From positions 36,394,001 through 36,458,000 of the forward strand of contig OZ024756.1 of assembly GCA_964016885.1 (NCBI GenBank): 64,000 nucleotides of DNA. The letters are read 5' to 3'. The DNA comes from Eledone cirrhosa (taxonomy: Eukaryota). Position numbers and translations under genes: made by a program. The notes under the pieces were generated by a model. The model did not search any database, was not told the origin of the DNA, and worked only from the letters and a program-made list of their open reading frames with translations. Positions 29,669 to 61,933 of this stretch are shown here, piece after piece; within the stretch, counting starts at the first letter, position 1; every line of letters begins with the position of its first letter.

Positions 29669-29840
29669 TTGTCTCTACTTTAGGCACAAGGCCAGCAATT
29701 ACTCAGTGCATTACTGGTACTTTATTTTATTGACCCCGTAAGGATGAAAGGCAAAGTCAACCTCGGCGGGATTTGAACTCAGATCGTAAAGGGACGTAAC
29801 TATGCTGGGAAGCATGGCGTCCGACCCTCGACTGATACTA
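29666..29840 (-). mobile_element. tRNA-derived SINE, family 1
   Basis: Reverse family consensus (ggatgaaaggcaaagtcaacctcggcgggatttgaactcag). Confidence 0.85.
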
Positions 29841-30763: not shown

Positions 30764-30858
30764 CAGCAACATTAAGCTTGATGCGACAACGTAATGCAGA
30801 CACAATCAATTTTAAGATCAGCTACAGTTGAAAGTACTTTAATATTTAAGAAAAGGAG

Positions 30859-31051
30859 GGCGGTAGATTGACAGTATCGGTAGAGGGTGAGACACCATAC
30901 TTTGCAGCATAGAGTTACGGTCCTTTACGGTCTGAGTTCAAATCTCGCCGCGGTTAACTTTGCCTTTCATCCTTACTGGGTCGATAAAATAAAGTACCAG
31001 TAATGCACTGGTTAATTGCTGGTCTTGTGCCTAAAAATAGAAACAATTATT
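30859..31051 (+). mobile_element. tRNA-derived SINE, family 1, full length
   Basis: Complete consensus from ggcggtagattgacagtatcggtag to tagaaacaattatt. Confidence 0.88.
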
Positions 31052-31255
31052 TAAGATAAGGAAAGGTAGAATGTACTTTAATATTTCAGTGGATTTCACT
31101 TCAAGATAAATTACTGTAAAGTTGAAATATGTATCCGATTTTATATACAGGGTGGGTCAGAATTCATGACTCGCTTGTTAGTTATATTTCTTAACATGCT
31201 TATTTTATTGTTATTGTATTGTGTTCAATGTATGAGATTATTTGCTAAAACAGAC

Positions 31256-31446: not shown

Positions 31447-31494
31447 TTGCTAAAACAGACAACATCACTGAAGTCTGCAGAGTAATGGAAGCAA

Positions 31495-31755
31495 CGCCCT
31501 ACTCACAACCACAGGCGCTGAGCTGGCCAGCCGCAGGTGTGAGCCCCTTGCGAGCTGGAATGGCTTTTCCAACGCGTCTCCCTTGCCGTCCTCCGGGGAA
31601 ACGCCTTCTCCATTCTGTCTGCCGGGGACTGTGGAGAGGCCACCAATAGCAGTCAAGTACTGGGGTCGATTCTTCGTCTATATCTCTTTCTCACTTCCAT
31701 TCTCTCTCTCTCTCACACACACACACACACTCCACTCCCTCTCTCTCCCTCTCTA

Positions 31756-31795
<40 letters not shown>

Positions 31796-32113
31796 TCCCC
31801 TCCTCCTCTCTCTCTCCCCCACACACACACTCCACTCCCCCCTCTCTCTCTCACACACACACTCTCTCTCTCTCGCGAGCTGGAATGGCTTTTCCAGCGC
31901 GTCTCCCTTGCCGTCCAGCGGGGAAACGCCTTCTCCATTCTGTCGGCCGGGTCTGTGGGGATTGACTGACTTGTCATTTTACCAGGCGACATGGACACAT
32001 GGCTATAGGTACTTAGCGTGAATTTACTTCTGCCTTTGTATCACCTTTCTATAACTCCATCAGTATTTTACATTTTATAACAAGGCTAATCCTTTGTCGA
32101 CGATTGGCGTTCT
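31495..32113 (+). mobile_element. Two CRE-clade 3' fragments (31495-31630 and 31872-32113)
   Basis: ELEWLFQRVSLAV(L/Q)RGNAFSILSAG occurs twice; the second is followed by the same 3' UTR as 26446-26590. Confidence 0.8.
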
Positions 32114-32780: not shown

Positions 32781-33056
32781 AGCAAGATGTATGGTAGGTC
32801 GTATGTGAATCGCGATGATCACGTCTGACCTACCAAATATGTGACGGTAGCTAGTTAAGCTCTATGCGTATACGCAGAACAGAAATATTAGTGAAAAAGA
32901 ACAAAGGAACTATTATGACATTATAACGAGTTTATTGCCGACAGCCGTTTCGTCCGACCATCACATGTTATATGCCTTGAAAAGTCCCACCATATGGTCG
33001 GACGAAACGGCAATAAACTCGTTATAATGTCATAATAGTTCCTTTGTTCTTTTTCA

Positions 33057-39522: not shown

Positions 39523-40419
39523 CTAGTAACAACAACAACAACAACAGTAACAAAACAGTACCACCACCACCACCATCACCACCACCAACAACAACAACAA
39601 TAACAATAATAACAACAACACCAACAACAACAACAGTACCACCACCACCACCACCACCACCACCACCACCAAGAACAACAATAACAACAACAATAACAAC
39701 AACAACAAGTAGTAACAGTACATAAGCGGAAACATATGAGTCTGTAAGGCCGAAACATGTCGTGGGAAGATTGCTGTTTGTAGGTCATTTTTTTTCTTAA
39801 CTCCTTTGACATAAACCTATACATACATATATATATATATATATATATGTATATGTGTGTGTGTGTATATGTATATATATATATATATATATATACTTTC
39901 TGTTAGTAATATTGACATCACTGTGAGTATTTTTAGTTGACACAGGCACGTACTTACTTTCGTATGTATGTATGTATCTATGTATCTATGTATGTATGTA
40001 TGCATTTATGTATGTACGTAAGTATTATGTATGTATGTATCTATGTATGTATGTATGCATCTATGTATATACATAAGTATGTATGTATGTATCAATGTAT
40101 GTACGTACGTATGTAATATCATCACACAAGCCATAAGTTACATGTTTTCTTTTGAGTTATTGTCCTTTATAAATCCTTAACATCTAGGGCGTAACGACTG
40201 AGAAGCAATGACCCCTGCAGTCACTTCTTAATTAATTAATCTATGACCTTAACAAATCTAGGACGGACTTTGACACATATTCATTTCTTTTAGTGTGCAT
40301 TCTAATGTCTTTAATATTGTGTGTCAGTTCCGTTCATGCTTGAAGAAGATAAGAAAAAAGAAAGCTAACGATGTGTGTATGTTCACAGCTCCAGTTAGGC
40401 TTTGGTGAAATCGGGTTTC

Positions 40420-40983
40420 CTTGGCCCTAGGGCTACCTTCCTATTCACCACCATGGGCACAGAGTTGGCTACCCATAACAGTGCAGACTTCTGGTGTCCT
40501 TAGCCCTAGGGTCACCTCCCTATTAACCACCATCTGCACAGAGTTGGCTATCCATAACAGTGCAGACTTCTGGTGTCCTTTGGCCCTGGGGTCACCTCCC
40601 TACTCACCGCCATCGGCACAGAGTTGGCTACCCATAGTAGTGGAGACTTCTAGTGTCCTTGGCCCTAGGGTCACCTCCCTACTCACCACCATCGGCACAG
40701 AGTTGGCTACCTGTAGTAGTAGAGACTTCTAGTGTCCTTGGCCCTAGGGTCACCTCCCTACTCACCGCCATCGGCACAGAGTTGGCTACCCATAGTAGTA
40801 GAGACTTCTAGTGTCCTTGGCCCTAGGGTCACCTCCCTACTCACCGCCATCGGCACAGAGTTAGCTACCCATAGTAGTAGAGACTTCTAGTGTCCTTGGC
40901 CCTAGGGTCACCTCCCTACTCACCGCCATCGGCACAGTTGGCTACCTGTAGTAGTGGAGACTTCTGGAGCCCTTGGTCCTAAG
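40420..40983 (+). repeat. 79-bp minisatellite derived from CRE endonuclease coding sequence, about 7 copies
   Basis: Unit encodes VVETSSVLGPRVTSLLTTIGTELA, matching AVETSGVLGSRATSLLTTIGAELA in the 26587-26952 ORF. Confidence 0.9.
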
Positions 40984-40992
40984 ACCTCCTAC

Positions 40993-41173
40993 GATCATCA
41001 AATCGATCGTGCCTCGAGCTGGTCGCCAGAGAAACGATTGTAATATGTCCAATAAATTCCATTCGTCGCAACACTGATTCTCTTTTTTTTTCTGTGATAT
41101 CATACTCTGCTCTATGAGACGATCGAGTGCTCATACGGCCTACCGCATACAGACGCTTTAAGCATCCAACACC

Positions 41174-41178
<5 letters not shown>
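40993..41178 (+). mobile_element. Family I Penelope-like pLTR remnant
   Basis: GAAACgattGTA, then aataaa and a tactc...gagtg hairpin, ending in (TA)n. Confidence 0.7.
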
Positions 41179-41226
<48 letters not shown>

Positions 41227-41228
<2 letters not shown>

Positions 41229-41390
41229 AATGAAGTAATTCCGTCGGAAAAGTCCAGGAAAAAAGAGTGCTCTATGTAGGTAACAGAGCTTAATAGTTAT
41301 GTAATAAACAACATAAAGCAATTATTTCATTTACCAGTGATTTCTTAAAAGCAAAAAAAATTTGCTTTCAATCATCAGAATGAAAAAATG
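41227..41390 (-). mobile_element. Family D Penelope-like pLTR remnant
   Basis: Hammerhead motif plus a 100-nt tail to (TA)n; homologues at 14021, 24545 and 46574. Confidence 0.8.
41325..41385 (-). ncRNA. Type I hammerhead ribozyme motif (family D)
   Basis: Minus strand: tttcatt CTGATGA tt gaaagcaaa-ttttt-tttgctttt aa GAAA tc-act-gg TA aatgaaa; 7-bp stem I. Confidence 0.8.
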
Positions 41391-60900: not shown

Positions 60901-60907
60901 CAGTAAT

Positions 60908-61086
60908 AATTGTTTCTAATTTTGGCACAAGGCCAGCAATTACCCAGTACATTACTGGTACTTTATTTTATCGACCCCGTAAGGATGAAAGGCAAAGTTA
61001 ACCTCGGCGGGATTTGAACTCAGAATGGCAAGGACCGTAACTCTATGCGTCAAAGAATGGCGTCCGATCTTCTACTAAAACTGCCA
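60908..61086 (-). mobile_element. Family 1 SINE with target-site duplication aaaccacacagtaataat
   Basis: Reverse consensus flanked by a direct repeat. Confidence 0.88.
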
Positions 61087-61177
61087 AACCACACAGTAAT
61101 AATACGACCACAGTCACATATAACCGTATAACCTCAGAGTTACACATCCTGGAAACCACAAAACCACACAGTAATAA

Positions 61178-61333
61178 TACTCGATACTTGGGGCAGTAGA
61201 GTGGGTAATGATGATTTCTCCCGAATGAAACAGTTCTAGTCCTGTAGAAGCCATTTCTATATTAAATATTTATACTCTGCTTTGTATTGAGTACCTTACT
61301 TACTGTGGTTACCCCAGATTGAACCTAGGATAA
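61178..61333 (+). mobile_element. Family C pLTR remnant fused to an inverted family A tail piece
   Basis: tactcgatacttggggcagtagagtgggtaa (A, inverted) then TGATGA tttctcccgaat GAAAC agttctagtcct GTA gaagcc and the C tail. Confidence 0.75.
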
Positions 61334-61421: not shown

Positions 61422-61865
61422 AGGGCGGGTAAAATTCCCGAGATCCATGGACGAGTTCTCTCCAGCGGTCTCTGTCCCTCATCATCGTTGCCATGTCCTG
61501 CGTCTCCAAGAGATAGTGCCCGAGGATTAGAAGAGGGAATGGCTGGACCATTTTTGGACCCTACTAGGAGAGCCGCTCTCCACAGCCCAGAACACTAGGG
61601 AGATCAGGCGGCTCTTTGAGGAATTGGATATTGAGACAGGATCCTTCACCAGAGAGGAACTTCAGAGCCAAGAAGAAGATCAAGGAGGGCAAGGCTTATG
61701 GGGAAGATGGAGTGGCATCAGAGGTGATGAAGATGTGCGATTTTGATGATATCATCCTGGGGTTCTGTAACCAGGCACTGGAGAAAGGAGTTGCCCGAAA
61801 TCAGTGGAGGATCAGTAAAACATCGTCCCAGTACCAAAGAAGGGAGATCTCTCTAACACTAACAA
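61420..61865 (+). mobile_element. RTE/RTEX-like LINE ORF2 internal fragment upstream of the RT core
   Basis: Frameshifted peptide EELDIETGSFTREEL..AKKKIKEGKAYGEDGVASEVMK..QWR..IVPVPKKGDLSNTNN, typical of the pre-RT region. Confidence 0.8.
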
Positions 61866-61933
61866 CACACAGACACACACACACACACATACACGCACAC
61901 ACACACACACACACGCACGCACACACACACACG

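Follow-up and report, generated by a model that had tools for sequence, protein, structure and literature searches.

A bulged hairpin apparently conserved at the ends of Hydra-clade Penelope-like elements: a likely RNA site for starting reverse transcription internally

In telomerase, an RNA stem next to the internal template sets the position of the reverse transcriptase (RT) TERT on it, the DNA primer pairs with a few template bases, and a template boundary element located 5' of the template stops synthesis. In LINEs the recognized hairpin lies 5' of a terminal repeat, and copying starts at the end of the RNA. As described in the available parts of the literature on stringent LINEs and their partner SINEs, of which eel UnaL2 is an example, this structure is a small bulged hairpin near the priming site (PMC1636434, PMC4176376), and in UnaL2 its bulge is required for retrotransposition (PMC1636434). 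The closest described systems are found among the Penelope-like elements (PLEs). According to the accessible text of PMC8557442, PLEs of the Hydra clade target (TA)n, carry canonical type I hammerheads, have an inverted, 5'-truncated partner and a one-sided tail of 30-40 nt, and encode an ORF marked by the motifs RWK, DK[TS], CxCX5C, CxxC and CxH. Poseidon_Ac (Frangieh et al. 2024, PMC11167929, from the portion available) inserts at AT-rich targets, its copies end at two positions that bound a tail downstream of the hammerhead, and a stem loop is present at its start region. The Poseidon RT starts internally at the two sites bounding the tail, it cleaves and extends both DNA strands, and the protein is a predicted dimer (PMC11167929, same portion). 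Both accounts, in the parts available, state the choice of the PLE start site and the origin of the one-sided tail as open questions (PMC8557442, PMC11167929).

We analyzed a 64,000-nt stretch of Eledone cirrhosa DNA, referred to here as the window, that is AT-rich and about 26% microsatellite. It contains families of short PLE 3' ends inserted into (TA)n, each composed of a hammerhead, a short linker and a tail of about 60-95 nt that holds a small bulged hairpin, and many copies have an inverted partner arm that is devoid of the tail. The (TA)n targeting, canonical type I hammerheads, inverted 5'-truncated partners and one-sided tail are shared with the Hydra clade, whereas the tails are longer than those published for that clade and the window copies contain no ORF (PMC8557442, main text as available). 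No remnant of a PLE ORF was found in the window, and some of its copies may be non-autonomous. The features are as follows; families J and K were absent from the preliminary description.

40992..41176, plus strand: end of a family I element, 5'-truncated and tail-bearing, that matches the copy at 24226-24323; it has read coverage with loose ends
41031..41042, plus: family I hammerhead, 3' half only, with the GAAA core, a short stem III and the GUA site
41098..41100, plus: TAT at which tail-less family I enters (TA)n, 3 nt before the stem; putative inner RT start
41101..41176, plus: family I tail, 76 nt, missing from the copy ending at 24217
41104..41128, plus: family I bulged hairpin, mutated in this copy in the upper stem at 41120-41121
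41177..41226, no strand: (TA)n target array common to the tail-to-tail I and D copies
41227..41292, minus: family D tail
41269..41289, minus: family D bulged hairpin, closed by G-C and lying 3 nt beyond the junction, a TAT at 41293 (E 3e-6)
41325..41385, minus: type I hammerhead of family D, with a stem I of 7 bp, CUGAUGA, a long stem II, GAAA and GUA
14062..14082, minus: another family D hairpin, whose inverted arm is short and has no tail
24217..24354, minus: tail-less family I copy with a complete hammerhead core
24354-24343, minus: CUGAGGA core of family I in this sister copy, also seen in read extensions
58491..58514, plus: family A hairpin; the inverted tail-less arm 58373-58425 stops 5 nt before it
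25785, 47679, 33477 and 20251, plus: further family A hairpins
49064, 10209, 61202 and 6920, minus: further family A hairpins
61274..61292, plus: family C hairpin, with tail-less ends 4-5 nt before it
15973-15955, minus: second family C hairpin; a mutated copy lies near 19631
18941..18961, plus: family G hairpin; the inverted hammerhead-bearing arm 18669-18765 stops 3 nt before it
46199..46223, plus: family J hairpin; the inverted hammerhead-bearing arm stops at 46014, 4 nt before it
32859..32880, minus: family K variant hairpin, GUUC/GAGC
53603..53632, minus: bulged hairpin of a candidate further family; its upper stem has 7 bp, and (TA)n follows after 69 nt (z -3.3)

The preliminary description had reported CTC...GAG hairpins in the tails of families A, C, G, I and D, and all five strings are present where it had placed them. 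It called these families unrelated, and no BLAST similarity is detected between them; they are probably members of one clade, so the hairpin is likely inherited. Its statement that the hairpin lies a few tens of nucleotides before the TA array agrees with the 41-57 nt measured to the downstream array in A, C, D, I and J, although this spacing is less telling than the 3-5 nt that separate the hairpin from the upstream junction of tail-less copies. The hairpin was also said to follow a ribozyme. In families C, D and G the hairpin does follow a complete type I hammerhead, whereas the family I copy at 41.0 kb retains only the 3' half, and no CUGANGA core was found in any window copy of family A. 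The family I core is present in the sister copy at 24354, the inverted arm of J carries a hammerhead, and A and K show the 3' half alone. The two arms of J have only their last 12 nt in common, and the K hairpin was located through its inverted arm, not through the motif. Neither a hammerhead nor a partner copy was seen for the candidate at 53.6 kb. Family A copies (58373-58482 and others) contain GAAAC..GUC with a palindromic loop, and the family I hammerhead (24354-24274, minus) has a long loop II of about 55 nt with its own hairpin. Hammerhead cores of other families that are not followed by the hairpin occur at 47072 (plus), 12450, 26056 and 25586 (all minus), and at least two of these run into (TA)n as tail-less copies do.

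The bare string pattern is not itself informative. CTC-N8-22-GAG occurs 178 times in the window, as compared to 146+-15 (maximum 185) in 40 shuffles, and is thus at background, whereas the fuller hairpin motif, which was defined post hoc from the five families first reported, occurs 13 times as compared to 0.05 in shuffled sequence. A structural descriptor placed 28-100 nt before a microsatellite was found at 13 of 298 segment ends versus 0.07 in 30 shuffles, and a relaxed form at 16 versus 0.87 (30 shuffles), with several copies of one same family among the matches. Rfam yielded no match at gathering score within the window.

The hairpin consists of a 4-bp RCUC/GAGY lower stem, a 2-nt bulge led by U, and an upper stem that covaries. 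The swap from A-U to G-C that had been pointed out in family D is confirmed, and outside the window G-C predominates, being present in all 24 metagenome families with independent PLE support (described below). The lower stem is conserved in sequence, in keeping with the initial view that the stem is kept while the loops diverge, but the supposed loop is not free, as it holds the covarying upper stem set off by the bulge. With a 2-nt bulge, upper pairs 5, 6, 7 and 8 are formed in 24/24, 24/24, 18/21 and 12/19 of the supported families, and in 27/33, 17/33, 12/31 and 11/27 of the unsupported singletons; the denominators omit short loops, and the search pattern partly constrained pairs 5 and 6. 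Registers with no bulge, a 1-nt bulge or a 3-nt bulge pair worse across families and were rejected. Compensatory changes are found (U-A/C-G, A-U/G-C, C-G/G-C), giving a covariation score of 0.267 versus 0.152 that none of 500 shuffles reaches (best slid register, 0.158) in a metagenome set picked with a pattern derived from the window, and with shuffles that ignore relatedness among the families. G-U pairs outnumber A-C pairs 12 to 3, which favors the sense strand.

The predicted stability of the fold varies. The median lower-stem probability is 0.98 in the supported families versus 0.14 in unsupported matches, and of six window families only D and G are predicted to exceed 0.5 at 37 C. The computed minimum free energy structures of A, G, I and J lack the stem, and the window copies closed by A-U fold weakly in silico. 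This weak predicted folding is a real weakness of any reading of the hairpin as an RNA handle. A covariance model trained without window sequences, on a set itself chosen by the window-derived pattern, gave 16 window matches at E<=3. All of them fall in tails of families A, C, D, G and J, and the model did not recover K, the 53.6-kb candidate or the I copy with the mutated upper stem.

The hairpin keeps a fixed register relative to copy ends. In all seven window families (A, C, D, G, I, J and K) tail-less arms or solo copies end in a TAT 3-5 nt before the stem: 5 nt in A (7 copies), 4-5 nt in C, 3 nt in D, G and I, and 4 nt in J and K. All of these junctions are TATs, with which (TA)n can pair. 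Two exceptions to the register occur in the window, at 10290 and 44690, where the copies stop 19 nt short of the stem. An automatic scan of the window found the tail to be one-sided in 8/8 hairpin-bearing inverted insertions, and the metagenome loci comprise six one-sided inverted pairs and one symmetric tail-less pair (L094). In four metagenome families the tail-less partner stops 4 nt short of the stem, and in some other pairs it stops 7-12 or 39 nt short. For family I, 198 raw reads and 32 contigs exit at 41100 into (TA)n in sequencing runs of a related organism that shares at best 0.56 of sampled words with the window. Most of these reads differ from the window copy at 41120-41121 so as to complete a 6-bp upper stem. 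Of the other variants listed, most lie in the 3-nt loop or the bulge, and none lies in the lower stem. RAD-seq read ends at 41165 and 41177 were left out, as they may be restriction sites. Three one-sided, inverted, TA-inserted families in the window (7413-7604, 7634-8028 and 54144-54227) were found to have no RCUC/GAGY hairpin and possibly represent another PLE clade with another signal; further copies lie at 45277 and 45926 (of the second) and 23482 (of the third). Tail-only copies that start at the inner junction, immediately behind a TA array, occur in the window (47671-47750) and in a metagenome locus (L010:3980-4060). At 61178-61209 (minus), a family A tail fragment that stops exactly at the 3' end of the hairpin is fused head-to-head to a family C copy.

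The same hairpin is present in other animals' elements and next to PLE genes. A search for the motif followed by (TA)5, which covered 23 of 64 parts of a metagenome contig collection, returned at least 118 loci, whereas viral contigs gave no match to this pattern and none in a protein search for the elements' ORFs. Clustering of the tails, with L023 left out as a duplicate of L022 and the start of L064 moved by 5 nt, produced 64 groups. Independent evidence of a PLE supports 24 of these, and the unsupported remainder comprises 33 singletons and 7 groups with several copies. A type I hammerhead, which is outside the search pattern, lies upstream in 18 of the 84 matches with enough flank as compared to 27 of 2792 tiles. 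The distance between its cut site and the hairpin stem is 41-56 nt. Hydra-type ORFs finish about 170 nt (L031) and 210 nt (L058) upstream of the hairpin. The ORFs linked to it in L031, L058, L106 and L120 show RWK, DK[TS], CxCX5C, CxxC and CxH, marks that they share with the Hydra clade as they do its assignment to PLEs with a C-terminal endonuclease (EN, seen in L031 and L058), and their Atlas neighbors carry RVT_1 and GIY-YIG. Pfam, NCBIfam and PDB searches gave nothing significant for these ORFs.

Published elements carry the hairpin as well. In the available portion of the PMC8557442 supplement, three of the six new Hydra consensus sequences (Hydra-2_Amil, Hydra-2_Ajap and Hydra-1_Ajap) show by eye the canonical form, so that it is present in coral and sea-cucumber elements; Hydra-1_Crog has a variant, Hydra-1_Amil is doubtful, and no hairpin is seen by eye in the Hydra-1_Obim consensus. 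The family D tail resembles, also by eye, that of Hydra-2_Ajap. Six 9-mers from the 3' side occur eight times in this 584-kb supplement, as available and with line breaks that may hide matches; four occurrences are Hydra hairpins, and the other four lie in Naiad/Chlamys consensus sequences, apparently in coding stretches, with no hairpin context. The Naiad/Chlamys clade itself was ruled out as the source of the elements, as canonical hammerheads are present and the linked ORFs have a C-terminal EN. An early guess at a Neptune-like clade was given up for Hydra in view of the Hydra consensus sequences and the linked ORFs, and a Helitron-type 3' hairpin was dropped because hammerheads, inverted partners and RT ORFs are present. 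Two Hydra-type PLEs (L119 and L120) lie on contigs filed under bacterial MAGs, probably through contamination from an animal host.

The hairpin is real and conserved, and is apparently an unpublished cis-element of Hydra-clade PLE ends. The preliminary description did not recall it as described, and we found no published description either, although subscription papers, Repbase notes, figures or bioRxiv supplements might mention it. Neither 'hairpin' nor 'stem-loop' appears in the main text of PMC8557442 or in PMC7229834 and PMC4209133, as far as these texts were available, and the available parts of PMC11167929 and 10.64898/2026.07.22.740005 contain no description of the motif.

In two loci a second hairpin precedes the ORF, 4-8 nt past the far end of the tail. 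The order in L106 is hammerhead, hairpin, tail, (TA)n, 4 nt, second hairpin and the ATG of an ORF with the RWK motif, with the second hairpin 29 nt before the ATG. L120, which was retrieved by protein likeness only, has one hairpin behind the hammerhead and another before the start of the ORF, 7-8 nt past 13 nt that are common to the end of the tail. The Hydra-1_Ajap consensus, in the part of the supplement available, opens with two hairpins. The twin arrangement is therefore seen in two loci and one consensus, the L119 contig ending inside the hammerhead. There is no second hairpin in the window, whose copies stop short, and none was found behind family I in the reads of the related organism, in which one family I loose end (7 contigs), cut at 30 letters, closes in a possible stem start.

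Taken with the register, these arrangements make it likely, in our judgment, that the hairpin is an RNA site gripped by the element's RT to start copying internally, and that two hairpins give two starts. The proposal in the preliminary description of a shared cis-element that serves as an RT recognition or initiation signal is supported in that the fixed 3-5 nt register to copy ends fits it, the function being deduced from position. The outcomes that it had named as refuting were not obtained, as compensatory changes are present and shuffled sequence is devoid of the fuller motif, and the hairpin does occur in known Hydra-clade consensus sequences. According to this model, the endonuclease would cut the (TA)n target, the freed (TA)n 3' end would pair with the UAU located 3-5 nt 5' of the hairpin, and the hairpin-bound RT would extend the paired primer. 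Two hairpins about 60-90 nt apart would then provide two starts, and the 'tail' would be the sequence between them. More speculatively, a protein dimer holding both hairpins may prime one cut end at each site, so that an inverted tail-less arm becomes joined to a tail-bearing arm. That the twin hairpins of the Hydra clade seat the two subunits of a dimeric, telomerase-related RT, each priming one (TA)n end, is a speculative extension that we consider possible yet hold only tentatively. If true, a single step would make both the one-sided tail and the inverted partner, any short RNA with the hairpin could hitch-hike, and the hairpin would act as a transferable RNA handle that sets the position at which internal target-primed reverse transcription begins, a present-day counterpart to the placement of TERT on its own RNA.

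The arrangement differs from each of the described systems. In Poseidon_Ac, the starts fall within one AC-rich stem loop inside the ORF, there is no homology to the target, and no conserved motif is given in the part of the text available (PMC11167929), whereas here a conserved bulged stem is positioned 3-5 nt 3' of the TAT microhomology, upstream of the ORF, and occurs twice. In kind, the PLE hairpin is like the stem-loops by which RTs recognize stringent LINEs. LINEs have a different class of RT, however, and their hairpin is itself copied, whereas the PLE hairpin is positioned 3' of an internal start, is missing from tail-less copies and is duplicated. Unlike the telomerase boundary element, the PLE hairpin is on the 3' (start) side, and the likeness drawn here to telomerase is one of arrangement; the hairpin offers a natural comparison for RNA positioning in telomerase, as well as an annotation marker for Hydra-clade ends and their non-coding dependants. 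Owing to the fixed register, the compensatory variants and the conservation across phyla, start-site choice and the one-sided tail become directly testable.

The fixed register would also be explained if the hairpin directed a cut in the RNA, or the end of the transcript, a few nucleotides upstream, with the RT starting at the resulting 3' ends. RNA-seq read ends have been reported at the start sites of Poseidon (PMC11167929, available part), but in the same work extending the template at its 3' end left the dominant product unchanged and the main substrate was unprocessed RNA; that element is of a different clade, and we judge processing to be an unlikely explanation. Rather improbable, too, is a motif that acts as DNA, in which the GIY-YIG endonuclease or the whole protein would recognize element DNA or cDNA, cut beside it and trim one arm. 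The sequence conservation of the lower stem resembles that of a protein site, the endonuclease of D. virilis Penelope needed the tail for recognition (earlier work cited in the available part of PMC11167929), and Craig et al. attribute the tail to resolution by the endonuclease (PMC8557442, available part), yet duplex DNA needs neither a variable spacer nor a covarying upper stem, and the excess of G-U over A-C pairs (12 versus 3) fits a single sense strand.

A signal for RNP assembly, stability or translation, with the register a by-product of nearby TAT microhomology, would account for the hairpin that lies close before an ORF start (29 nt before the ATG in L106) and for junctions that are all TATs pairable with (TA)n. 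It seems improbable, as the AT-rich regions hold other TATs, yet most copies end at the TAT that is 3-5 nt away from the stem, and both hairpins lie just behind an end. Chance likeness or a functionless ancestral relic, which the background frequency of bare CTC..GAG and the thermodynamically weak stems might suggest, is already largely refuted and very improbable, as the hairpin is kept with compensatory changes across families that are otherwise devoid of detectable likeness, recurs in published coral and sea-cucumber elements, and is absent as a pattern from viral contigs.

The window contains other repeats in addition to these elements. A 79-bp tandem repeat abuts family I and is related to fragments at 26570-26971, 31472-31969 and 40411-40981, which we take to resemble the C-terminus of a retrotransposon with a restriction-like endonuclease. 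An abundant SINE-like family of about 190 nt is present at 17452-17625, 29670-29839, 30848-31053, 52974-53162, 60903-61092 and elsewhere, with short target duplications at several copies, and a short ORF stretch at 61568-61900 presumably resembles the reverse-transcriptase region of a LINE.
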